Shown piece by piece: positions 1 to 15,933 of a stretch of DNA of 35,819 nt. The translations under genes and the position numbers were made by a program. Position 1 is the first letter of the stretch. Every line of letters starts with the position of its first letter. Source of the DNA: a virus (taxonomy: Duplodnaviria; Heunggongvirae; Uroviricota; Caudoviricetes). The notes beneath the pieces were generated by a model that saw only the letters and a program-made list of their open reading frames with translations, ran no database searches and was not told the origin of the DNA. The stretch spans positions 1 to 35,819 of IMG/VR virus record IMGVR_UViG_3300027896_000019. The stretch is one strand, 5' to 3'.

Positions 1-68
1 TTTCTGACTATAGCAGAACCAACCATTCCTGTAGAACCTAAAACTAATATTTTTGAATCAATATTCAT
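1..68 (-). CDS. fcl: GDP-L-fucose synthase, N-terminal fragment (truncated by window edge; not in ORF track)
   Basis: Manual translation from ATG at 68 after GGAGG: [22 protein letters not shown], a Rossmann GxxGxVGSAIVR motif typical of Fcl/WcaG; lies directly after gmd. Confidence 0.8.
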
Positions 69-1102
69 CTATTATCCTCCAACTTCAAATCAGCATCCAT
101 CATTAAATTAACTAAATCTTCAAATGTTGTTTTTGGACTCCAACCAAGTATTGACTTTGCCTTACTAGAATCACCTAGTAAAATATCAACCTCAAGTGGT
201 CTGAAAAACCTTTTATCAACTTCAACAACTTTTTTGTTGTTCCTAGCATTAATCCCAATCTCGTCAACTCCACTTCCTTGCCATTCGATATTTATATCTA
301 CATATTTAAATGCCTTCTCAACAAATTCTCTAATGGTATGCGTTTCACCTGTTGCCAGTACATAATCATCAGCACTATCTTGTTGTAACATCATATACAT
401 TCCTTCAACAAAATCTCTAGCAAATCCAAAATCTCTTTGCGCATCTAAATTACCCAAAGTTAAAATAGATTGTTTGCCAAAATATATTCTGGAAACAGCC
501 TGTGTAATTTTTCTACACACAAATGTTGGTAATCTTCTAGGACTTGTATGATTAAACAATATTCCATTACATGCAAACATATTATATGCTTCTCTATAGT
601 TAACTGTTGCCCAATATGCGTATAATTTTGCTATTGCATATGGGCTTCTAGGAGTAAATGGAGTGTTCTCATTTTGTGGTTGTGTTCCTTCTAACCCACC
701 AAATAATTCACTTGTAGACGCTTGGTAATATTTTGTTTGTATCTGTGTATCTTTGATAGCATCTAACAATCTAATCGCTCCTAAAGCAACAGTATTACCA
801 GTAAACTCTGGTAATTCAAATGACACCATAACATGACTTTGAGCAGATAGATTATATATTTCATCAGGTTTAACCTTATTTAATATTCTATTAATACTAT
901 TTGCATCTGTCATATCACCATAATGTAAATGTAAAGTTTTATATCCAATATTAGGATTTTCATATAAGTGGTCAATTCTATCTGTATTAAATGAGCTAGA
1001 CTTCCTTATTAATCCATGAACATCATAACCTTTATCTAATAATAATTCAGTTAAATAACTACCATCTTGTCCTGTTATTCCTGTTATAAGTGCTTTTTTC
1101 AT
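65..1102 (-). CDS. gmd: GDP-mannose 4,6-dehydratase
   Basis: [68 protein letters not shown]. Start moved to ATG 1102 (SD GGGTGA); ORF track start 1114. Confidence 0.97.
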
Positions 1103-1106
1103 ATAA

Positions 1107-1676
1107 TCACCCATTTGTATTTATATAGTCCCAATTCCAATGCTCCATTTGAGCAACAATTACATCTTCTGGTACATAACCATCGTCATAACTAATTAAA
1201 TAATTTTCATTAATTTCTTTAATCTTTTCAAGTATATCTGATTCAAGTACTTGATATTTTTGATATAATGCACTATTATTATTCCACATTCTTCTATCAT
1301 CAATTAATAAAGTATGTGTTTTAATTTTATGTTGTTTAATAATATTAAGTTCGTCAATCACAGGACACATTTTATCGCCAAATAATGTTGTATTATCGCT
1401 GAAATGTGCATCTAACCAAAAACATATATTTTGGTTTATATCCTTAATTATATCCCAAAGTATTTTCGAACTATCACCTAATATAATTTCTACTGTTTCG
1501 TTATGTTTAAATTTTGCCTTACAATGTTCATAATATCTTGGAGTGATTTCAATTGATATTATTTTTTTAAAGCCTGATTCCAATGCATGTTCGATTCCTC
1601 TACCTAAATAACTACCTGTTTCCACGAACACATTATTATTATTATAATTATTAAAGATATTTTTAACACCTGACAT
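1107..1676 (-). CDS. Class I SAM-dependent methyltransferase (putative sugar O-methyltransferase)
   Basis: [12 protein letters not shown] motif [27 protein letters not shown]; SD AAAGGAG. Confidence 0.75.
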
Positions 1677-1693
1677 TAATTCTCCTTTAATTG

Positions 1694-2278
1694 CTATTGT
1701 TTTTTAATTATAGCCAATGATGCACAAACTTCATCTAATTTTATTTTATTGTCTGTAACAAATTCATCTACTGCAATCGTAACTTCATTAATTATACCAT
1801 AATCATGTATCAACATATATCCATTATGCACTAACTTGTTATAAAAATATTCCATTGCCAACCATGTTGTATGTCCAGTATCTACATCTATATGCACTAA
1901 ACTATAGTTAATTTTTTTATTTTTTATATGTTTTAATGTTTCTGTAGGAAACACACCTTTGTAAAATTTAACATTAAAATACTCTTTTAGGTAATTTTTA
2001 ACATCATCTATGTTACTTATATAATTATCTTCTCTGTATGCAACATTACTTTTTTCTAATACTGTACCTTCGAATGTATCAAATAAATGTAAAACCTTAT
2101 CATTTTTTTTAAGTTCACAAATAATTTTAGCAGAAGCACCTTTCCATACACCAACCTCAACAATATCACCATTTAGTTCTTTAATTTCATTTAAAATATT
2201 ATATAGTTTGCTTGCTTCAAAAAAATTTAATCCATAACAAACTTCTGACTGTATTTTAGAATATAGCTTATTAAACAT
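1694..2278 (-). CDS. TylF/MycF/NovP-family O-methyltransferase
   Basis: GDIVEVGVWKGAS, LHLFDTFEG, FYKGVFP, LVHIDVD, LIHDY; SD AAGGAG. Confidence 0.88.
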   Translation of the reverse strand: MFNKLYSKIQSEVCYGLNFFEASKLYNILNEIKELNGDIVEVGVWKGASAKIICELKKNDKVLHLFDTFEGTVLEKSNVAYREDNYISNIDDVKNYLKEYFNVKFYKGVFPTETLKHIKNKKINYSLVHIDVDTGHTTWLAMEYFYNKLVHNGYMLIHDYGIINEVTIAVDEFVTDNKIKLDEVCASLAIIKKQ

Positions 2279-2292
2279 AATTATATCTCCTT

Positions 2293-2916
2293 TTATTTTC
2301 TTATAAATAATGAGTTACCACATTGTAAATAGTTGTAAATATTTTCATTTAACACTTCTACAAAACCAATTTCAGACATAAATTGTTTAAATTCACCATA
2401 TAATGTCAATCCCTCATAAAACTCAACAAGTGAATACTCTGCAAAAATAGCTTTAGTTGTATGCAAAATTTTATCAGCATGTTTCAAAACTTTATGTTCA
2501 TTACCTTGTAAATCTAACCACATAAAATCAATTCTATCAATATTAAAATCTTCAACAAATTTATTAATAGTAATTGTTTGAACAACTTCTTCTCTATCAA
2601 ATGTGCATGTTGGAAACATCGTTAAATGTTCTTTTGGTTTTAATAATGAACTTGACTGATTGGAATATCCATCACTTATATATATTGTTTTTTCCCCTAT
2701 AGTATCATCTAATGCTAAATTATAAGTATGAATGTTTGGTATAGCACATGTACTCTCTGATAACAATTTATATATATGCGATACTGGTTCAAATGAGTAT
2801 ATCGTAGAGTTTTGAAATAATTTAGAAAAGTCTATTGAATCATTTCCATTAAATGCTCCTGCATCTAAAATTACAGCATCATCACTAATATATTGTTTTA
2901 AAATATTTTTGTCCAT
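2293..2916 (-). CDS. FkbM-family methyltransferase
   Basis: VILDAGAFNG, YSFEP, NLAL, VQTITINKF, IDFMWLDLQGNE, GNSLF at C-terminus. Confidence 0.88.
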   Translation of the reverse strand: MDKNILKQYISDDAVILDAGAFNGNDSIDFSKLFQNSTIYSFEPVSHIYKLLSESTCAIPNIHTYNLALDDTIGEKTIYISDGYSNQSSSLLKPKEHLTMFPTCTFDREEVVQTITINKFVEDFNIDRIDFMWLDLQGNEHKVLKHADKILHTTKAIFAEYSLVEFYEGLTLYGEFKQFMSEIGFVEVLNENIYNYLQCGNSLFIRK

Positions 2917-3613
2917 TTATCGTTAACCTTTCTTCTATTGGTAAATACATTCTTCTAGAATAAGTTTCTCTATCTTGGTTAAAGTTTTTAAAATTTGCTT
3001 CATCAAATTCATCTTGTTTTCTTTTTCCAGAAACATAATGTTTATGTTGAAATATTACTCCATCTGTATCTCTATCATCTTTCAATAATCCAAGTTCATT
3101 TAAGTTATGATAGGCTTCATTATCAGAAAAACAATGTGTATATTCTGGATGAAATACAATCTTATTTAATTTTTTTAAACAATAATAAGTCATACAGGCT
3201 AAAGTAATACATAAACATCCAACTTTAGAATATTTATTTTGATAACCATCATCTAAAAATACTGCTCCATTCCAATCTATAAATTTGTTTTCTACCCATT
3301 CATCCCAAAATACATTATCTGGTGGATAAAAATCATCTGATAATAAAATCAATATATCTGAATCATTGGCTTCTAAACTTGTTGTTAATTTAGATATTGC
3401 ATAATTATAACCTTTGCGCTCATTATCATATATAATATATCCATTGGCATCATTGAACATTGTATAATCAATTAATTCTTCATCATTAATTTGTGTAATT
3501 ATTAAATGAAGGGACACTCTTTCTGGATGTTTACAATGTTTTAACCATTCTTTATATGTATTCATAAACATTTCTGGTCTAATTGTTGCACCTAAAATTA
3601 AAATGTTTTTCAA
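2885..3613 (-). CDS. GT-A fold (GT2-like) glycosyltransferase
   Basis: ILILLSDDFYPP (DxD-like), YTHCFSDNE, FQHKHY; TTG start with SD GAGGTG. Confidence 0.65.
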   Translation of the reverse strand: MKNILILGATIRPEMFMNTYKEWLKHCKHPERVSLHLIITQINDEELIDYTMFNDANGYIIYDNERKGYNYAISKLTTSLEANDSDILILLSDDFYPPDNVFWDEWVENKFIDWNGAVFLDDGYQNKYSKVGCLCITLACMTYYCLKKLNKIVFHPEYTHCFSDNEAYHNLNELGLLKDDRDTDGVIFQHKHYVSGKRKQDEFDEANFKNFNQDRETYSRRMYLPIEERLTINGQKYFKTIY

Positions 3614-3625
3614 TTATACACCTCA

Positions 3626-4639
3626 TTATATTCCAAGATTAATAATTTCATCTATAATTACTCTTGCTCTTATATCATAATTATGATTCCTTACAACAAA
3701 GTCTCTTGCAATCTTTGCTTTTTGTCTACGATGTTCATCATTCATATTTAAAATTTCTTCAACCATTAATTCTGCTTCATTTGAATTTTTTGCATGATAC
3801 ATATGCTCTCCGAAAATTTCATATTGTGCAGGTTGATAATGTGCTAACATTAAACTCTCGTGACTACAAGCAATAGTTTCATATGGACGCATAGAACAAT
3901 GAGTGTTACTGTTAACAGGCACATTCATTCCAAGCATACATTTACTAGAGTTTGTAACAACTGGTAGCCATTCATAAGGAAGTTCAGCATAACCATCTTT
4001 TGTCCAATAATTATTTGGATAATTTTTTAGATTAACAGGTCTAGTTTCATCCATCCACCAAATGCCATAAATCATCATATCGTATTTTTGCTTTTCTAAT
4101 AAATTCATAACAAACCATTTAGTTTCATCGTATCTATTAGAGTAATTTCTAGCGACTAAGCTAATATCATGTGTAAACGCTTGTTCTTTTGGAACAGGTT
4201 TATGAAAATCAGCATTACATCCAAACAGCAAATTACCACATTTTATATTTCTTAATTTGAAACTAGATAACTTTTCACCCATTGTAGTCCATAGAAAATC
4301 ACAATTAGCACTCATATATTCACCTATTTGTGGTGTGCAATCAGCTTCTATATCCCAACAATGAAATTGAATTCCTTTATGTATAAATAAAGTATATAAT
4401 AAATTAATGGGTAAATTGCTATACCCCTCAGTAAATATTACAGTTGGTTTAAAGGTTTCAACTCTATCCATAATTAACTTAATATGTTGTTCCAAAGGTT
4501 TATCCCATATTGCACAACACTCATTATCTAAAAATGAAGTTTTACAACCAAGATTATCAAAACCAGATTTTAAACCATATTTAATCAAAGGGGTTTGTGA
4601 TAAAAATAATACTCTTATATCCTTATAGTCCTTAATCAT
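3626..4639 (-). CDS. CgeB-like (GT-B) glycosyltransferase
   Basis: FGCNADFHKP, HDISLVARNY, SMRPYETIAC, ARDFVVRNHNYDIRA pattern of CgeB/DUF3880-type proteins; SD GAGGT. Confidence 0.75.
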   Translation of the reverse strand: MIKDYKDIRVLFLSQTPLIKYGLKSGFDNLGCKTSFLDNECCAIWDKPLEQHIKLIMDRVETFKPTVIFTEGYSNLPINLLYTLFIHKGIQFHCWDIEADCTPQIGEYMSANCDFLWTTMGEKLSSFKLRNIKCGNLLFGCNADFHKPVPKEQAFTHDISLVARNYSNRYDETKWFVMNLLEKQKYDMMIYGIWWMDETRPVNLKNYPNNYWTKDGYAELPYEWLPVVTNSSKCMLGMNVPVNSNTHCSMRPYETIACSHESLMLAHYQPAQYEIFGEHMYHAKNSNEAELMVEEILNMNDEHRRQKAKIARDFVVRNHNYDIRARVIIDEIINLGI

Positions 4640-4647
4640 AATCTACC

Positions 4648-5640
4648 TCAAATTTTGATATTATTTTTTACTGCAAACTTATCAATTGCTTGTTCAATCA
4701 CATCAACACGACTATACCAACTATTCTGACTTGCTATGTTTTTACATTTATTAATAATTTCTATATCATCTTTACATCTTAATGCCCTATAAACATTATT
4801 AATAAATTCAATATGATTTCTACTTGCATAAACAGCATCAGGGTATATCGTAGCTTCTGGTATATCTGTTGCAACGGTTATTTTGCCGTGTGACATAGCT
4901 TCGTAGTTTTTTATTGGATTACTATAATCCGCTACTTGGCAACGCTTAAAAGGAAGGATATTAACGTCACAGTGATGATAGTATGCCTGTAAATCTTTAT
5001 AAGATTTTTTGCCAATATATACAATGTCTTTTGGTGCTTTGGATAACCCCCATCCTATTCCTACAACGGCTAAAGTGAATTTTGAGGCTAGTTTCTCAAC
5101 TAATTCAATATCACACCAACTGCCTGACAAAGCCCCAGAAAACAATAAAATTGGACGTTTTAAGCCTATGAATTCTTGGGGAACTTGATAAGCCTGATTA
5201 CCCAACTCTGGGAAACATGCATTTCTACACATATGTATATTAGGATGTTGGTTTTTTCTTAAATCATATAAAGGTTGTGAGGTTGTAAGTAGAATATCCG
5301 CTTTTTCCACCATTAGATGTTCATCAGATGCATTTTCTTCAAAATTATCTAATGAATCATAGATGTGAATTTTGTAATTAAGTTCGTTTAATTCTTTATG
5401 TTTATGTGACCATGAAGTAAATGCTATATCAATTTTAGGAACTCTTTTTTTAAATAAATCCCAATTATGATAAAGAGTAAAATTGTCATTTAGTCTTTCT
5501 CTATTACAATGAATATTAAATGATTTATTTATCCAATATACATGATAGCCACGTTGACTAAATATATCCATTAAATGATGTGGACGTTGTTTTAACGCAA
5601 AATCATAGTCAATTGTATTAAAATATGCTATAGATTTCAT
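4648..5640 (-). CDS. GT4-family glycosyltransferase (TuaH-like)
   Basis: QRPHHL, IYDSLDNF, ADILLTTS, LLFSGAL, CDVNILPF, NPIKNYEAMSHGKITVAT. Start moved to ATG 5640 (SD AAGGGG); ORF-track start 5709 falls inside a promoter. Confidence 0.85.
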   Translation of the reverse strand: MKSIAYFNTIDYDFALKQRPHHLMDIFSQRGYHVYWINKSFNIHCNRERLNDNFTLYHNWDLFKKRVPKIDIAFTSWSHKHKELNELNYKIHIYDSLDNFEENASDEHLMVEKADILLTTSQPLYDLRKNQHPNIHMCRNACFPELGNQAYQVPQEFIGLKRPILLFSGALSGSWCDIELVEKLASKFTLAVVGIGWGLSKAPKDIVYIGKKSYKDLQAYYHHCDVNILPFKRCQVADYSNPIKNYEAMSHGKITVATDIPEATIYPDAVYASRNHIEFINNVYRALRCKDDIEIINKCKNIASQNSWYSRVDVIEQAIDKFAVKNNIKI

Positions 5641-5660
5641 TGATACCCCTTTTTTGGCTA

Positions 5661-5700
5661 AAAAAAATAATAGGGATATATTATCTATATCCCTATTATT
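5661..5700 (-). terminator. 15-bp perfect inverted repeat with U-tract (terminator and/or operator)
   Basis: aataatagggatata (5666-5680) / tatatccctattatt (5686-5700), 5-nt loop, followed by a T run on the minus strand. Confidence 0.7.
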
Positions 5701-5729
5701 ATAATACATCTATATATTAATATTGTCAA
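5701..5729 (-). promoter_or_regulatory. sigmaA-like promoter upstream of the glycosylation island
   Basis: TTGACA (5724-5729), 17 bp, TATTAT (5701-5706). Confidence 0.65.
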
Positions 5730-5741
5730 TATAATTTCAAT

Positions 5742-6506
5742 TTATGCAGGAACAACAATAAACTCCCACATGTTACCATCTGACCTTCTAGGGTCAAGAC
5801 CTTGTAAGTCTAGTTTAAATGTCGAAGCACTCTTGTAACTTCCACCAATTTCATAGGTAGGCATTACTTTCATTTTGTAGCAAGTAAGCTGTGCATATGC
5901 TTCAATTGTAGAATTGGTAGCGTCTGCATCACTATAAATTGGGAATTGAATTGTGCAAGAACAAGCTTCTGCAAAATCGTTTGTTTGAACAGTTAAAATT
6001 TCAGTTGTAGGAGTAGTAGCAACCTTATATGCAGGATATACTTTTGTTCCTGCTAATGCTACGTTAAAACTTAATTCAGTAACACCACCAACTGTTTGAG
6101 CAAAAAATTCAGAAGCACTAGGTGTAGCAGTTCCTAAATCTAAACCATTAATTTCAATACTTCCTGCAACAGCTAAATGAGGTAGAGTAATTGTATTAGT
6201 AACTGCACCTACTGTATAAGGAGTACCAAAATAATAATATTCTGATGCTGAAATTGTTTTAGCTCCACCTGATGTAATTATAAGTTGGTCAAAATCCCAT
6301 TGTGCATCAGTCATAGCAATTGCAATAGATTTCTTTGTATCAATTCTTGCTAGATTATAAAAACTCCAACCACCATTGATTTCTAAGGAATCTCCACCCA
6401 AAGTTATTGAACCCTGACTAGCAGTCGCAACATGCAAGTTTCTACTTGCTGTTCTAATTAATGCTTTTGGAGCATCAACGATAAAGCCTTTTCCTGTAAA
6501 AGCCAT
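5742..6506 (-). CDS. Putative major tail (tube) protein
   Basis: 254 aa, beta-rich, follows neck/terminator genes, very strong SD (AAAGGAGG). Assignment mainly by synteny. Confidence 0.6.
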   Translation of the reverse strand: MAFTGKGFIVDAPKALIRTASRNLHVATASQGSITLGGDSLEINGGWSFYNLARIDTKKSIAIAMTDAQWDFDQLIITSGGAKTISASEYYYFGTPYTVGAVTNTITLPHLAVAGSIEINGLDLGTATPSASEFFAQTVGGVTELSFNVALAGTKVYPAYKVATTPTTEILTVQTNDFAEACSCTIQFPIYSDADATNSTIEAYAQLTCYKMKVMPTYEIGGSYKSASTFKLDLQGLDPRRSDGNMWEFIVVPA

Positions 6507-9580: not shown

Positions 9581-10567
9581 TTAAAGTGCAGTATCTTCAT
9601 AAACACCAAGGTAAGCATTATCACCAAAGATAACAGCAGTACCAAAGTATTTGCGTAGATTAACTTCCATTGTGTTATCGTTGATGTTTGTAGCATCCAT
9701 AGATTCTACATCACCTTCCATAACAACTTTTAATGGTGATTCTGCGCCCTGTGGAACAATGTATAACAAATCTTGTCTCAAAACAGGAGTTGTATTGCTT
9801 CCTCTTAGGAATGGATTATCTAATTTCGATACACTAGCACCTTTGTAAGCACCAATATATCCATTTTTATTAAATTCATCCATAATGCTGTTAGAGAACA
9901 TTTTTGTAGAAGTATAAGTTGTGAAACCAGTAGCTTCTGCAAGTTTGGAAACTATGTTAATATCACCCAATAAAGCAACATTACCATATCTCTGCATTGA
10001 CCTAATCATAGGGTCTAAAGTAGCTGTAACAATACCAGAACCACTTGCATAATTAGGACTTGAATATCCACTAAATGAAGCATATAAAGTAGCTTCAATC
10101 AATGCAACAATTTTTCTTTCCATTTCATTTGATGCATCAGTAATACATTCATCAAAATTAACTTTGCCACTTGCAAGTTCATATAAGTTAACATATGGTC
10201 TTGCAGATACCTCTACTGTATCAACAGTTTGATAAGCGTTCATGATTCTGCTTCTTTGAGTTGTTCCATTTTTAGCCTGTACAAAAGCTTCAATACCTGC
10301 TTTTTTTACTTTAAATAAAGCCTTTTCCCCAATACCAACTCTTTTTGTATCAGCAAATAAATCAATATAATTAGTGTTTGTATTGATTATGTTATTAACT
10401 ACAAATGCAAGTAACTGTGAAATCTCATATCTATTATTAGGAGATGGATTTTTAGCCAACTCTTTAATTGCACTTCTTGCTTCTAAAACTTCAATTTCAC
10501 TCTCTTTAATTTGATTTAGGTGTAAAGCAGAAAATACTTCTACAGCCTTATCAGTTCTTAATGCCAT
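9581..10567 (-). CDS. Major capsid protein (SPbeta-like head module)
   Basis: 328 aa, AAGGAGG SD, followed by a terminator, after portal-scaffold-decoration genes. Confidence 0.8.
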   Translation of the reverse strand: MALRTDKAVEVFSALHLNQIKESEIEVLEARSAIKELAKNPSPNNRYEISQLLAFVVNNIINTNTNYIDLFADTKRVGIGEKALFKVKKAGIEAFVQAKNGTTQRSRIMNAYQTVDTVEVSARPYVNLYELASGKVNFDECITDASNEMERKIVALIEATLYASFSGYSSPNYASGSGIVTATLDPMIRSMQRYGNVALLGDINIVSKLAEATGFTTYTSTKMFSNSIMDEFNKNGYIGAYKGASVSKLDNPFLRGSNTTPVLRQDLLYIVPQGAESPLKVVMEGDVESMDATNINDNTMEVNLRKYFGTAVIFGDNAYLGVYEDTAL

Positions 10568-12637: not shown

Positions 12638-14131
12638 TTATTGATTAGAAGGTTTGGGATTTTTACCAGTTGCACTTTTATTCTTATCTGTAGTCGCATT
12701 AGGATTTGGCGGTCTACCTCCTTTGTTGTCTGTAGGCGGTGGAGTGTTACCAGATGATGTATGTGTATTAGTTGGTGGTGCAAACACAGTAGCAAAATCA
12801 CGACTAGATTCATCTAATCGTCTTTCATACTCTTGTTCAACATCCAAACCATGTTCTTCTAATAAAGTTGTACTACTAATACATCCCTGTTGCCATAATT
12901 GAAATGCTTCTTCTTTGATTTTATCGTCACCAATTAAATCAACTTCATTAAAAACAAAAGTTGGTATTTTATTACTTCCAACTCTCCATATTTCAGCCAA
13001 TCTTCTATTATATTTCTTCATCATTTCACAAAAGTTATTTTGATTTTGCTTAATGCGTTCTGATGCTGTTCTAACAGATATATTAGCTTGTGCAAATGAA
13101 CTACCATCACTTTCGCCTGTCACAATAACAGGACTTATTCCACCACTTGATAAAATTTGACTATTTACTTCTGTATATTTAGATTTATCAAATAAATTTT
13201 GGTTTTCAACAGCAATAAATTTTGCATCAACAAAATGTGATGTTACTGCTAAAGGGAATTTATTTAATGCATCTTGAAATATCTTTGCCGTAGCATTTAA
13301 TTGTGCCTGATTTGGCTTAGGTAACAATTCATCATGACCTAACTTAGCATGTAAAAAACCTTTTGCACCAATATTCATTTGATTATCTTCATAAAATGAT
13401 ATTAATTCTTTTTTTGCTAAAGGTTTAAGGCATGAAGTCACCATTGGAATAGCGTATTTCTGCCACATTGGCTTAGGCTCTTGTAGAACAAATGTATTAA
13501 CAGGATTTAATTGTATCCATGCTGATGCATTTCCGCCTTGAAGTGCCTGAGTTATTTCAGGAGGATAACCTTTATATTTTTCCAATAAACTATCAAGGAA
13601 ATCTTCTTTTACATTTAATACCTGTCTACGATTAAGTTCTGCTACATTAAAATCAATAACAGGTTCACCATTAACCATTACTGTTGAAATTCTACAACGA
13701 TGTGGTGGTAGCGTTAATATACTTCCATCTGGCATAAAATATATAAAACAATTTGCAAACAAATACATTTCATAAAAAATGCTTCTAGCAATATCTAAAA
13801 AATTTATAGCTTCATAATAATCAAAATATTTTTGTTTAGCCTTTTCTGAAATGCCTTTTAATTTATATCCACATGAAAGTGAAAATGGTACTAAAACACG
13901 CTTAATAATTCCACTAAAAATACTATCAGCATCAACAAAATAATTAGATAGTTCATAAAGTTTAATAATATTTGTTTGTTTATCTTTTAATATTGCTTCA
14001 TAGTTATAATTTTTTAGTTCGCCTGTAAACGTATAATCTTTACTTTCATATGAAAATACCTGATTAAGTATATTAGTATTTAAATCTGCTCCAACCAATA
14101 TATCAGATGTATCTTTTTCTTTATTGCTCAA
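12638..14131 (-). CDS. Portal protein
   Basis: 497 aa between terminase and scaffold; C-terminal GGRPP low-complexity tail common in portals. Confidence 0.75.
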   Translation of the reverse strand: MSNKEKDTSDILVGADLNTNILNQVFSYESKDYTFTGELKNYNYEAILKDKQTNIIKLYELSNYFVDADSIFSGIIKRVLVPFSLSCGYKLKGISEKAKQKYFDYYEAINFLDIARSIFYEMYLFANCFIYFMPDGSILTLPPHRCRISTVMVNGEPVIDFNVAELNRRQVLNVKEDFLDSLLEKYKGYPPEITQALQGGNASAWIQLNPVNTFVLQEPKPMWQKYAIPMVTSCLKPLAKKELISFYEDNQMNIGAKGFLHAKLGHDELLPKPNQAQLNATAKIFQDALNKFPLAVTSHFVDAKFIAVENQNLFDKSKYTEVNSQILSSGGISPVIVTGESDGSSFAQANISVRTASERIKQNQNNFCEMMKKYNRRLAEIWRVGSNKIPTFVFNEVDLIGDDKIKEEAFQLWQQGCISSTTLLEEHGLDVEQEYERRLDESSRDFATVFAPPTNTHTSSGNTPPPTDNKGGRPPNPNATTDKNKSATGKNPKPSNQ

Positions 14132-14163: not shown

Positions 14164-15933
14164 CTACCAATTATAAGCAGTGCCAATGCAAAAATCACCT
14201 TGGTTTCTTTTATTATCCTTATTTTTTTCTTCTTGTGTAAGAATATATTCCATTGCCATTGCTAATGCTGTGTATCTGTCTTTATGTAAATAATTACTTT
14301 GTGTGTCATATTGAATATTCCCTGATGCTGTAATTTTAGGAATGATATTACCCATTTCATGTTGTAAGGCATCAGTTTCAATATATATTGCAGTTTCTTC
14401 TAATAAAAATTGAGATTTATTCTTAGCAGTTTCACTTTTTTCTTCTTGATTTAACTCTGATTCACGCCTTATGGTAGCACTAGAAACAGGTAACATTAAA
14501 CTCTGATTCTCTAAAAACATTCGTGTAGCAGTAGCCATCCTACCATTAAACTTATTATCTGCCCTGACTCCACGAATGATAGGCAATCCACTTCCTGCCG
14601 TTTTCTCAAATGTATCTAAAATAAAAGGAGGATATTCCTTATTATTTTCATCAACAAATGGTGCATTTAAAAGTGAAATAATACCTTCTCCTAAAGAGTT
14701 AACGTCAATAAGAACTTTTTCTATATTAGGAAACCTCACACACATTTTTCTAATTTCTGTTGCGAGAATTTCTAATTGTTGTCCATGAAATGAGCGAATA
14801 TTAACAAGATATTTTAGAAATGTACCATCAGACTTTTCAGACATTTTAATAATGCACATACATGTATTATCTGCATAGGTTGAACCTGATGTTGCAATAT
14901 CACAACTTAATATATATCTTGACTTACTACCCTTTGCTTGAATTAATTCAACAGGCTCTAACTTACGGCATGGTTCAGTAAGTTCATATGGGAAAAAACT
15001 ACCTTCTGTAGCTCCAATGAAACGACTGTTCCATTCCATTTCCCATGAAGTAATTGGCATTTGTTTCTTTTGTGCTTCAACAAATTGTTCATCAATTATT
15101 CCATATCTAATTCCAGTTTTGTAATTTAATGAACAAGCAAACTTTGAAGTATCTCCTTGTTTAATATCCTTTAGTGTTTCTTTAAATCTAGCAAAAAAAT
15201 CACATGATTTTAAATAGGCAGAAGTTGTTTGAATGAGTTTAGATTCAACATCTTCAAACTCAACTCCATCACCTTTAAACTTCCAAAATATATCACGTTT
15301 ATATTGTAATATTGGAAATAGTACAGATGTAATAACTTCACTCTTAACCCACGCTGATTCATCTATGTAAATTACCTTTTTACGAAGTCCTCGAATATTA
15401 GAACCATCAACATTCATTGCCAACGCTTCAATTGTTGAACCTGATTTGAAATTTACTACACCTATATCTTTTTGAATCCTAATTGGGAAATTGATTTCTC
15501 TGCTTATATTAGGATTGTCAGATGCTAACGCTTGTATGTATTTAATAGTTAATAAAGCCTGTCTAACAGTCTTAGAAACTATTAATATTTGATTATATGG
15601 ATATAATATAGCCAATGATATTAAAACTAAAGCCATTTTAAAAGTTTTACCCAGTGACCTTGCTTCAACATCATCAATCATATTGCAATTACCACAGGCT
15701 CTAACAATAACCTCTTGAAATGGAAATAAACTAATAGGCTTATTAGGAGTAGATAAATATTCTTGAATAAAAACATCTAAATGTGACCTATAATACCAAA
15801 TTTGTTTTTCCCATTCTTCTGTATTAGGTATTGCTTGTTGCCTTGCTACTTTATTACTAAGCGGATTGCTAGGGTCTAAATATTGTCCTGATTGTTTTGC
15901 AAATTTCTTTTTGGAGAAGTTCATATAAGCCAT
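14164..15933 (-). CDS. Terminase large subunit
   Basis: Walker A ARSLGKT, Walker B IYIDE, WEMEW..RF, nuclease acidic motifs SCDIA, IDVNSLG, KDRYTA. Confidence 0.9.
   Translation of the reverse strand: MAYMNFSKKKFAKQSGQYLDPSNPLSNKVARQQAIPNTEEWEKQIWYYRSHLDVFIQEYLSTPNKPISLFPFQEVIVRACGNCNMIDDVEARSLGKTFKMALVLISLAILYPYNQILIVSKTVRQALLTIKYIQALASDNPNISREINFPIRIQKDIGVVNFKSGSTIEALAMNVDGSNIRGLRKKVIYIDESAWVKSEVITSVLFPILQYKRDIFWKFKGDGVEFEDVESKLIQTTSAYLKSCDFFARFKETLKDIKQGDTSKFACSLNYKTGIRYGIIDEQFVEAQKKQMPITSWEMEWNSRFIGATEGSFFPYELTEPCRKLEPVELIQAKGSKSRYILSCDIATSGSTYADNTCMCIIKMSEKSDGTFLKYLVNIRSFHGQQLEILATEIRKMCVRFPNIEKVLIDVNSLGEGIISLLNAPFVDENNKEYPPFILDTFEKTAGSGLPIIRGVRADNKFNGRMATATRMFLENQSLMLPVSSATIRRESELNQEEKSETAKNKSQFLLEETAIYIETDALQHEMGNIIPKITASGNIQYDTQSNYLHKDRYTALAMAMEYILTQEEKNKDNKRNQGDFCIGTAYNW

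Follow-up and report, generated by a model that had tools for sequence, protein, structure and literature searches.

The question raised by this locus is why a tailed phage should carry a set of sugar genes directly behind its tail tube gene, and on what molecule their products act. The window, which is the whole 35,819-nt stretch of DNA analysed, belongs to a 99.8-kb contig, a fragment of an uncultured SPbeta-like siphophage from a freshwater metagenome. The phage is large and related to Bacillus phage SPbeta, and its host is probably clostridial. Every ORF of window positions 1-34.6k is carried by the minus strand, and genes for terminase, portal, YonB-type capsid and YomX/YomW/YomU proteins were found 5′ of the island. 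The contig stops at window position 1, cutting the 3′ end of the island; no PhageMin_Tail match was found on the contig, and the tape measure gene is in the missing part beyond its end. An earlier note had read the island as a complete virus-encoded glycan pathway, and this reading is partly supported by the present analysis. Completeness had to be given up, since the contig end truncates the island and further genes are suggested by its relatives. The concern that it might be chromosomal DNA at a prophage junction or a misassembly was removed: the tube-island junction was spanned at even depth by Logan contigs of the source run, and the same site was found in complete phage relatives.

The neighbour of the island was confirmed to be a tail tube gene. 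Its 254-aa product (5742..6506, minus strand) was assigned to the YomU/SPR type from a structure match, a Pfam label and a phrog. The best Foldseek matches of its AF2 model (pLDDT 77) were the SPR tail tube chains 8xkn, 8ygm and 9jgh (E about 1e-11, TM 0.67-0.70), and a profile search against the same chains gave E 0.03. The precomputed label PF27173 YomU_Tube was present on 58/58 tube homologues, and the gene also matched phrog_2729, a virion structural protein. Inspection of the intergenic region (5641..5741, minus strand) revealed a sigma-A-like promoter, TTGACA-17-TATTAT, at 5729-5701, followed immediately by a 15-bp perfect hairpin and T run at 5700-5666. This promoter-plus-hairpin pair is kept with compensatory changes in L004, L006, L007 and L011. 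The post-tube hairpin was found in every relative, and the promoter was restricted to the close island-bearing clade and L021. A sigma-A-like promoter of its own before the hairpin is a moron-like trait, which would permit expression from a prophage.

In order of transcription, the island encodes a GT4, a CgeB-like and a GT-A glycosyltransferase, an FkbM, a TylF and a third methyltransferase (MT3), Gmd and an Fcl stub. The claim of eight co-oriented genes stood as to orientation, all being on the minus strand, and was amended as to number, to seven whole genes and a 22-codon Fcl stub. The packing is as tight as had been stated (intergenic gaps of -32 to +17 nt), an SD-like motif was present at every start, and the enzyme identities, including the two missed by Pfam (GT-A and MT3), were borne out by profiles, structure models and motif alignments. 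The first member of a conserved pair is a GT4-type GT-B glycosyltransferase (4648..5640, minus strand), which matched Glyco_trans_1_4 at 1.8e-7 and Glycos_transf_1 at 2.9e-5, with a weak match to TuaH. Its ORF begins at 5709, and the start was taken as M24 at 5640, which has an SD and gives a 330-aa protein in agreement with the 330-aa homologues; relatives have homologues of 32-78% identity at the corresponding position. The second member is a CgeB-like GT-B glycosyltransferase of 337 aa (3626..4639, minus strand; PF13524, Glyco_trans_1_2, 4.7e-10). Only 23 homologue clusters were found for it among 5.8 billion proteins, their long contigs being mostly phage-sized; several were labelled 'spore maturation protein CgeB' and some carried YkvP_N. 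The profiles of neither pair member matched a solved structure. The 242-aa product of 2885..3613 (minus strand) has no Pfam family and is a predicted GT-A fold glycosyltransferase. Its AF2 model (pLDDT 92) gave Foldseek matches to chondroitin synthase, the WrtF fucosyltransferase, B4GalT7 and TarP/TarS (TarP, PDB 6h1j), and the DD at 93-94 was invariant. The protein has 341 representative clusters, with frequent fusions to GT2, TOD1, GT8 or cytidylyltransferase domains. The relatives of the CgeB-like, GT-A and MT3 proteins were mostly viral.

The FkbM-family SAM methyltransferase (2293..2916, minus strand; 207 aa) scored 4.5e-17 for PF05050 and 79 bits for TIGR01444, and belongs to the conserved core, with homologues in G001, L006, G002 and L033. 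The TylF-family, macrocin O-methyltransferase-like enzyme (1694..2278, minus strand; 194 aa) scored 4.4e-18 for PF05711 and 1.1e-9 for Methyltransf_24; among the relatives examined no homologue was found at the other loci, and the enzyme was seen in this island only. MT3 (1107..1676, minus strand; 189 aa) had no Pfam match. It was assigned as a class I SAM methyltransferase from a 10-residue motif and from the structural neighbours of its Atlas model, which were class I SAM, FkbM and rhamnosyl O-methyltransferases (TM 0.73-0.85; 0.8-0.85 for the class I SAM methyltransferase fold). MT3 lies directly upstream of Gmd wherever it was found (this window, L006/L036, G002 and L033) and is the sole methyltransferase travelling with Gmd. 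On the other hand, G001 has neither Gmd nor Fcl, yet counterparts of the three visible glycosyltransferases and of the FkbM enzyme all occur there, indicating that these four enzymes are not fucose-specific. GDP-mannose 4,6-dehydratase (Gmd; 65..1102, minus strand) was identified by PF16363 (1e-141), by the TIGR01472 equivalog (537.7 bits versus a cut-off of 415) and by alignment to solved Gmd (6e-131), in which the catalytic STSE and YxxxK motifs were aligned; its closest cellular relatives were from Clostridium spp. (66-68%). The GDP-L-fucose synthase (Fcl) stub (1..68, minus strand) covers the first 22 codons, 15/22 residues being identical to the N-terminus of the G002 Fcl, which itself matched E. 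coli GDP-fucose synthetase at 1e-81. Its start overlaps the gmd stop (ATGA), with GGAGG 7 nt upstream.

A search for the same synteny found the GT4 and CgeB-like pair immediately downstream of the tube gene in two complete genomes with terminal repeats (G001 and G002), in L006/L036, L011 and L033-35, and in L010, a prophage in a Bacillota MAG whose tube was missed by jackhmmer and identified from the Pfam label alone. The pair adjoins the tube gene even across widely diverged tube proteins. Downstream of it, 1 to about 17 other sugar genes precede the tail chaperone (YomO/YomN) and tape measure genes. Nine more distant lineages have the tube gene, two small ORFs and the tape measure gene with no island, and in G001 the island is followed by two small unnamed ORFs and a tape measure ORF of >2,200 aa (2,413 aa in L010). 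The expected order of tube, chaperones and tape measure was thus seen in relatives. The conserved core consists of the GT4, CgeB-like, GT-A and FkbM genes, joined to swappable cassettes: Gmd/Fcl/MT3 here, DegT, an acetyltransferase, GT-D and GT2 in G001, and up to 17-19 genes in G002 and L033, the latter with a TagF-like Glyphos_transf gene. Because the pair is kept after the tube gene and the rest varies, the island is genuine phage DNA and a hypervariable glycan locus in the tail operon. In G001 and L033 the last island gene overlaps or abuts the chaperone genes, no plus-strand terminator lies between them, and the only terminator-like hairpins are those behind the tube gene and immediately ahead of the tape measure gene; co-transcription of the island with essential late tail genes would therefore be expected. 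The absence of a similar system from deposited phages was upheld by tblastn against 50,697 phage records, which gave one weak match for the GT4 protein and none for the GT-A protein.

We estimate a probability of about one half for the reading in which a hypervariable glycan locus of an SPbeta-like tail operon, seen here in its 5′ part, has virion proteins as acceptor. Since the enzyme set at this site differs between related phages, it is probable that phages of this clade decorate their own virions with a glycan that varies. Host GDP-mannose would be converted to GDP-L-fucose by Gmd and Fcl, the conserved pair would start a short glycan on a cytoplasmic acceptor, and the GT-A enzyme, probably with further glycosyltransferases encoded past the contig end, would extend it. 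The three SAM methyltransferases would cap the glycan by O-methylation, MT3, always found with Gmd, being the best candidate for methylation of the 6-deoxyhexose. The most likely acceptor would be at least one protein of the virion (tail tube, capsid or fibres), synthesised simultaneously with the enzymes and in the same compartment as these, and the particle would leave the cell with a sugar coat differing from phage to phage. None of the island proteins showed a hydrophobic or membrane segment, and the island has no gene for a flippase, a polymerase or a priming transferase; the enzymes thus appear from their sequences to form a soluble system, for which no lipid carrier would be needed. In O-glycosylation of serine-rich-repeat adhesins in streptococci, a GtfA/GtfB pair is followed by GT-D/DUF1792 and GT-A enzymes. 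This system is the best model for a possible mode of action of the island, as it is likewise a stepwise cytoplasmic protein glycosylation without lipid carrier, started by a GT-B pair. Unlike it, the subject phage has no detectable serine-rich-repeat acceptor, the profiles of its pair match no solved structure, and the visible island lacks the GT-D-like enzymes found in relatives; to our knowledge, just one GT-D has been characterised, and its role is in the O-glycosylation of protein in the cytoplasm.

We know of experimental proof for a glycan coat on phage particles only from a few mycobacteriophages. The general idea of a coat made by phage enzymes thus has precedent in actinobacteriophages: virion glycosylation is described for Che8, Corndog and Myrna, and in mycobacteriophages the subunits of capsid and tail tube bear glycans (PMC12619734 and PMC13313380, both citing Freeman et al., 2023, Cell Host Microbe). 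According to these accounts, phage-encoded glycosyltransferases, some with methyltransferases, lie in or near the virion module there too and are thought or shown to glycosylate capsid or tube. In contrast, the subject host belongs to low-GC Bacillota (probably Clostridia) rather than Actinobacteria, and the subject cassette is far larger, has a predicted GDP-sugar synthesis of its own and lies in a locus that is hypervariable at a fixed site between tube and chaperone genes. The Ser/Thr-rich C-terminal acceptor extension of the mycobacteriophage kind was absent from the tube and capsid proteins, and no acceptor motif tracked the island independently of phylogeny, both of which count against the virion reading. 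The moron-like promoter, the cargo site, the recombinases and the loss of this island's 3′ end were counted on the same side.

The main and serious rival, possible but doubtful in our estimate, is lysogenic conversion, in which the enzymes work at the cytoplasmic face and modify either a precursor of the host envelope or an export-bound protein: lipid-carrier-linked wall teichoic acid or secondary cell-wall polymer, flagellin, S-layer protein, or mother-cell spore coat or crust. The altered surface glycan would block superinfecting phages or alter spores. Staphylococcus aureus TarP, a prophage-encoded soluble GT-A enzyme, modifies wall teichoic acid from the cytoplasmic side and is a model here, as a GT-A enzyme of a temperate Gram-positive phage that alters a surface glycopolymer; unlike the island, it is a single gene outside the tail operon, without nucleotide-sugar synthesis or methyltransferases. 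Lysogenic conversion is possible since a tyrosine recombinase gene was present in 4/4 phages checked, which points to a lifestyle as temperate phage or plasmid-prophage. It also agrees with the promoter heading the island just 5′ of the terminator-like hairpin, with TarP and TarS among the GT-A fold matches, with names from envelope chemistry (CgeB/YkvP, spore; the weak TuaH match, teichuronic acid; the TagF-like gene of L033) and with variable content between conserved flanks, which is the look of surface-antigen loci. Moreover, the stretch between tube and tape measure genes is a hot spot for general cargo in this group of phages: Geobacillus virus E3 carries PemK, an immunity gene and an integrase-like gene there, G006 carries LRR, amidase, NUDIX and Acb2/Tad1 genes, and L010 an integrase. 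However, the islands of relatives have no terminator of their own and run straight into the chaperone genes, 8-19 genes including nucleotide-sugar synthesis far exceed known seroconversion modules, cellular homologues of the conserved pair are almost absent outside contigs of phage size, and the genes include none for a transporter, a ligase or a lipid-carrier enzyme.

The unrelated cargo, which includes anti-defence genes, also suits action on another soluble target, such as a small molecule, a non-structural phage or host protein (e.g., to disarm a defence protein) or a drain on host GDP-mannose, with the tail operon as no more than a tolerated insertion site. We regard this as unlikely, because of the tight, repeated adjacency of pair and tube gene across widely diverged tube proteins and because a single enzymatic hit accounts less well than an exposed glycan for the size and variability of the pathway. 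Least probable is hypermodification of the phage genome, with (methyl)fucose-containing sugars on modified bases evading restriction. An Acb2/Tad1-type anti-defence gene adjoins the pair in G006, and glycosyltransferases of phages are known to attach glycans of diverse kinds to DNA (Pyle et al., 2024, cited in PMC12619734). Yet no thymidylate-synthase-type pyrimidine hydroxymethylase was found in the subject phage (G000) or three complete relatives, when the same search found the family in 10/14 control genomes; the genes lie in the tail operon rather than a replication or nucleotide module, and a multi-sugar, multi-methyl GDP-sugar pathway is without known precedent on DNA.

The virion reading was also compared with chlorovirus PBCV-1, which encodes its own GMD and GMER, cytoplasmic glycosyltransferases and sugar methyltransferases, and makes fucose-containing methylated capsid glycans without the host secretory machinery. 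Like the island, it has a virus-encoded GDP-mannose 4,6-dehydratase and GDP-fucose synthase; unlike the subject phage, it is a giant virus of eukaryotes whose glycans are N-linked and whose genes are scattered, with no common descent. PMC3602175 refers to GDP-L-fucose synthase genes in chloroviruses. Cyanophages, whose GDP-sugar genes such as GDP-L-fucose synthase are listed as auxiliary metabolic genes for cell wall synthesis or modification rather than as a packed tail-module operon (PMC10665884, PMC9602691), are likewise tailed phages with genes of GDP-sugar metabolism.

The contig carrying this DNA (G000) is a linear IMG/VR virus sequence of 99,819 bp, of which the window forms the first 35.8 kb, and CheckV estimated it to be 78% complete. 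All genes from position 1 to about 34.6 kb lie on the minus strand. They include a large terminase (14164-15933), a portal (12638-14131), a YonB-type capsid protein (9581-10567), several small head-tail genes and a tail tube (5742-6506). The capsid protein was 42% identical to GP17 of Geobacillus virus E3 and 25% identical to the proteins of SPbeta-group phages. The tube was assigned to the YomU/SPR type by an AlphaFold model and Foldseek. The best matches of the model (33 homologues) were the cryo-EM structures of the SPR tail tube, 8xkn, 8ygm and 9jgh (E about 1e-11, TM 0.67-0.70). PF27173 (YomU_Tube) is the precomputed database label on 58/58 tube homologues, and PF27364 is likewise a precomputed label on homologues. 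A phmmer search of PDB sequences with the tube protein gave no match, and the SPR tube was reached only by profile and fold search. The YomU/SPR tube fold, the YonB-type capsid and the order terminase-portal-capsid-tube are those of an SPbeta-like siphophage. The opposite contig end encodes, again on the minus strand, an endolysin and giant fibre-like proteins, of which one has galactose-binding-like domains. No tape-measure domain was found on G000, and therefore the tape measure and baseplate genes are placed in the missing stretch between the two contig ends.

The tube gene is followed by a 101-bp spacer, seven tightly packed minus-strand genes and the beginning of another. These genes encode a GT4-type glycosyltransferase (5640-4648), a CgeB-like Glyco_trans_1_2 protein (4639-3626), a 242-aa GT-A fold protein (3613-2885), an FkbM methyltransferase (2916-2293), a TylF methyltransferase (2278-1694), a 189-aa methyltransferase (MT3, 1676-1107) and Gmd (1102-65). 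The 242-aa and 189-aa proteins have no Pfam match, and the earlier note had guessed them to be a glycosyltransferase and a SAM methyltransferase; fold and motif evidence agreed with both guesses. The 242-aa family comprises 341 representative clusters, with frequent fusions to GT2, TOD1/MUCI70, GT8 or cytidylyltransferase domains. Its Asp-Asp pair is invariant, and the predicted model (pLDDT 92) adopts a GT-A fold with chondroitin synthase, the WrtF fucosyltransferase, B4GalT7 and TarP/TarS as structural neighbours. MT3 carries the SAM-binding motif of class I enzymes. In structural comparison, its Atlas model matched class I methyltransferases, among them FkbM-type and rhamnosyl O-methyltransferase-type proteins (TM 0.73-0.85). 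The GT4 and CgeB-like profiles did not match any solved structure.

Gmd scored 537.7 bits against TIGR01472, for which the equivalog cut-off is 415, and its catalytic residues (Thr/Glu and Tyr-x3-Lys) are present, since the motifs STSE and YAIAK align to solved Gmd. In place of the segment NHESPLRGETF of solved Gmd 7kf3, the phage enzyme (window 65-1102) has a different 11-residue stretch, although its catalytic motifs are intact. The fcl gene overlaps the gmd stop and leaves the contig at position 1 after 22 codons, 15/22 of which encode residues identical to the start of a 310-aa protein of the complete relative G002. That protein matched E. coli GDP-fucose synthetase at 1e-81. As no more than these 22 codons lie on the contig, the gene probably, though not certainly, encodes Fcl (GDP-4-keto-6-deoxymannose 3,5-epimerase/4-reductase) rather than a different reductase. 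When JGI metagenomes were scanned by exact match for the rest of the island, one contig was returned, L036 (Ga0209777_10010594), from a relative 84% identical over window 1-1670, and this contig stops at the same point as the window. Three contigs stop about 66 nt into fcl (window 1-68; L036 1-68; L006 17417-17497, ENA k141_928262). The Logan contig over window 1-598 is 622 nt long and so reaches at most 24 nt past the window's end. In the source run, further Logan contigs are interrupted within gmd, near 570-600 and 1080-1110, and the depth shifts between 20 and 31. This pattern suggests coexisting variants of the gmd-fcl cassette, or words shared with other organisms.

The same site was then compared among relatives. 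An IMG/VR pattern scan found relatives with the tube alignment and none with the CgeB-like protein alone. Two of the relatives, G001 (118 kb) and G002 (128 kb), are complete and have terminal repeats. In both, a tube homologue with 65-68% identity is followed by the GT4 gene, the CgeB-like gene and further sugar genes. Downstream of the G001 island lie two small ORFs and then a tape measure ORF longer than 2,200 aa. The tube-island-tail order is also kept in contigs L033-35 and in a prophage within a 474-kb contig of the Bacillota MAG GCA_051751405.1 (L010), where the genes after the island bear the Pfam labels YomO, YomN and PhageMin_Tail. Moreover, the tube-island junction of the window is bridged by independent Logan contigs of the source run at even depth. 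The earlier note had read the island as phage DNA within the tail module, and its order in complete relatives and in the prophage bears this out. A chromosomal junction or a misassembly was ruled out by these bridging contigs and by the presence of the same arrangement inside the two complete genomes. In nine more distant lineages, only two small ORFs separate the tube gene from the tape measure gene; the island is therefore an insertion at that place, precisely where the earlier note had put it, between the tube gene and the chaperone and tape measure genes that normally follow. In Geobacillus virus E3 (L002 21857-33537), about 9 kb of non-structural cargo, with an integrase-like gene, PemK-like genes and a putative immunity protein, lies between the tube-region homologue and the tape measure gene. 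The interval thus seems to be a general hot spot for insertions across the phage group.

The islands share a core and differ in cassettes. The core, which recurs across islands, consists of the GT4 (32-78% identity), CgeB-like (about 41-66%), GT-A (about 40%) and FkbM (37-67%) proteins. The MT3-Gmd-Fcl cassette was found in the window phage and in L006/L036. The G001 cassette instead encodes a DegT aminotransferase, a hexapeptide acyltransferase, GT-D, GT2 and an Anp1-like glycosyltransferase, with no Gmd. G002 has an island of 17-18 genes, including Gmd, a cytidylyltransferase, Fcl, an HMGL-like enzyme, a split transketolase, another epimerase and an HNH/AP2 endonuclease gene, which lies inside the island. 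The L033 island has about 19 genes, one of them for a TagF-like glycerophosphotransferase, and the L010 island has three glycosyltransferases only. MT3 lies directly upstream of Gmd in all four Gmd-bearing islands (4/4) and is missing from the Gmd-less G001; this gene neighbourhood makes it the foremost candidate for methylation of the deoxyhexose. The FkbM protein and the three glycosyltransferases in view, on the other hand, are not tied to fucose. An Anp1-like glycosyltransferase is the last island gene in both G001 and G002, and the present contig stops inside fcl, so that the window probably holds only part of its own island. The islands of G002 (L032 977-15025) and L033 (1-14936) reach 14-16 kb. 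Their HMGL-like enzyme, split transketolase, extra epimerases and cytidylyltransferase, together with the TagF-like protein, an NTP transferase and DUF2284 in L033, are hints of branched or phosphate-linked unusual sugars. In G006 (130 kb; L008 18065-20247), the GT4/CgeB-like pair is located 7 kb after the tube gene among other cargo, behind LRR, Amidase_3 and NUDIX genes. It is directly followed by a 74-aa gene with an Acb2/Tad1 hairpin domain, of the anti-CBASS/Thoeris sponge family.

The spacer behind the tube gene (window 5661-5729) contains a predicted sigma-A-like promoter, TTGACA-17-TATTAT, with 11/12 consensus matches; a perfect 15-bp hairpin and a T run come directly behind it, the hairpin at 5666-5700. 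Both elements are kept in four relatives, and the hairpin shows compensatory changes in the island-bearing ones. A hairpin behind the tube gene was seen in all relatives, and the promoter was confined to the close island-bearing clade plus a single lineage lacking the island. Transcription from it is predicted to begin at or within the hairpin's first arm, so transcripts from upstream and those from the spacer promoter may be treated differently. In G001 and L033, the far side of the island runs into the chaperone genes with no plus-strand terminator in between. The final island ORF overlaps or adjoins them, and the following terminator-like hairpin stands immediately ahead of the tape measure gene. 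Of the features of a moron, the island thus has its own promoter by consensus match and, in G001 and L033, no terminator of its own before the next phage gene. Without a terminator and with overlapping or adjoining genes, the island and the tail chaperone genes appear to be transcribed together, which argues for expression of the island during particle assembly, whatever else the promoter would allow. The sequencing runs holding the stretch comprised only the probable source run, a DNA metagenome, and there were no RNA runs among them.

No island protein contains a hydrophobic 19-residue window. Pfam and NCBIfam searches of the island gave no match to a priming phosphoglycosyltransferase, a flippase/polymerase or a transporter, and none was present among the annotated genes of the relatives' islands. 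With soluble enzymes and none of these functions, assembly of the glycan must take place directly on an acceptor in the cytoplasm. Our main reading, to which we give a probability of about one half, is glycosylation of virion proteins. It is favoured by the fixed place beside the tube gene, the apparent co-transcription with tail assembly genes, the mostly viral distribution of the CgeB-like, GT-A and MT3 families, and the precedent of actinobacteriophages, in which virion glycosylation is known (PMC12619734, PMC13313380). Stepwise O-glycosylation of proteins in the cytoplasm would serve as a working model, in which the GT-B pair would act before the GT-D and GT-A enzymes. Serine-rich-repeat adhesins of streptococci are O-glycosylated stepwise in the cytoplasm in this way, by a GT-B pair and then by GT-D and GT-A enzymes. 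This system comes closest as a model, and GT-D-like genes are present in several phage relatives; however, no collagen-like or serine-rich-repeat acceptor was found in the 99.8-kb contig. A 'T-T-P' loop in the tubes of close island-bearing phages was considered as an acceptor motif and dropped, because island-free tubes are Thr-rich there too and the signal follows phylogeny. Complex prediction of GT4, the CgeB-like protein and the tube, with an alignment for each, scored 0.00 and speaks neither for nor against binding.

The main rival to virion glycosylation is the remodelling of a host envelope glycopolymer or an exported glycoprotein from the cytoplasmic side, which we hold to be the less likely but still serious alternative. 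The sigma-A-like promoter predicted at the island head, the recombinase genes, the spore- and teichoic-acid-flavoured family names and the unrelated cargo in the tube-to-tape-measure interval of E3, G006 and L010 all point in this direction, whereas the membrane and priming genes required by a lipid-carrier locus of the Wzx/Wzy or ABC type are absent. DNA is an unlikely acceptor, given that the island genes stand outside the replication module and that PF00303, the thymidylate-synthase-type pyrimidine hydroxymethylase, was absent from the 78% complete G000 and from three complete relatives; the same search found it in 10/14 control genomes. The SPR-type tail tube is a known trigger of the abortive-infection NADase DSR2 (PMC11263360, PMC11087589, PMC11850899). 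Since the pair adjoins the tube gene, and in G006 an Acb2/Tad1-type gene, one might conceive of a virion 'serotype' locus, in which a fast-changing methylated glycan would coat the tail tube and perhaps other particle proteins, driven by host recognition; on freshly synthesised tube subunits it would mask the DSR2 trigger as a counter-defence. Such masking would amount to an anti-defence mechanism of a new class, but we regard this reading as a long shot.

To our knowledge, a few mycobacteriophages are the only phages for which glycosylation of the virion by the phage's own enzymes has been demonstrated. Glycans of actinobacteriophages are reported at the C-termini of capsid and tube subunits (PMC12619734), and the mycobacteriophage system uses a C-terminal Ser/Thr-rich acceptor extension. 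In contrast, the C-terminus of the tube here is a conserved strand (…WEFIVVPA) and that of the capsid protein reads …VYEDTAL, and neither protein contains an S/T-rich window (at least 10 in 20 residues). In tblastn searches of deposited phages, GT4 gave a single 24% match, to an unannotated gut phage fragment, and the GT-A protein gave none. Lacking both sequence similarity to deposited phages and a C-terminal Ser/Thr tail on tube or capsid, the island is, as judged by these comparisons, not a strict member of the mycobacteriophage glycosylation system. GDP-sugar genes have been described in cyanophages (PMC10665884) and, among other viruses, in chloroviruses (PMC3602175). In our literature search, no glycan island was described for SPbeta-like phages or for the tail modules of other Firmicutes phages. 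New here are the group of phages concerned, the supply of GDP-fucose by the phage itself, the conserved pair and, at one fixed site of the tail operon, a variability like that of O-antigen loci.

Confirmation here would carry virion glycosylation over to large temperate phages whose low-GC Gram-positive hosts are probably clostridia. The genetic form would be new as well, a fixed tail-operon site with 3 to about 19 sugar genes, in which a conserved initiating pair and exchangeable cassettes resemble a virus-borne bacterial O-antigen locus. Such a locus would give a handle on the forces that select phage-surface diversity (receptors, defence sensors, grazers or antibodies), on a virus-specific glycosyltransferase/methyltransferase family with no Pfam model or solved relative, and on the link between the SPR-type tube, which is known to trigger defence, and a mechanism that might mask it. 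If envelope remodelling is true instead, no larger glycan module for lysogenic conversion would be known from a Gram-positive phage.

The hosts are probably low-GC Gram-positive and clostridial. A genome-collection scan found no cultured host and only one distant tube homologue, in a Peptococcaceae MAG without an island; the habitat of the sole run with the sequence is freshwater, and the L010 prophage directs attention to Bacillota of the same habitats. The nearest relatives of Gmd are phage copies (92%, 72% and 71%), followed by Clostridium species at 66-68%. The GC content stays at 24-32% along the sequence, and the composition does not shift at the island. At the far end of the contig, a fibre-like protein of 1,611 aa (G000 90998-95833; L003 7999-12834) carries two NedA-like/F5-F8 type C galactose-binding-like domains, a sugar-binding module on what is probably the receptor-binding apparatus.
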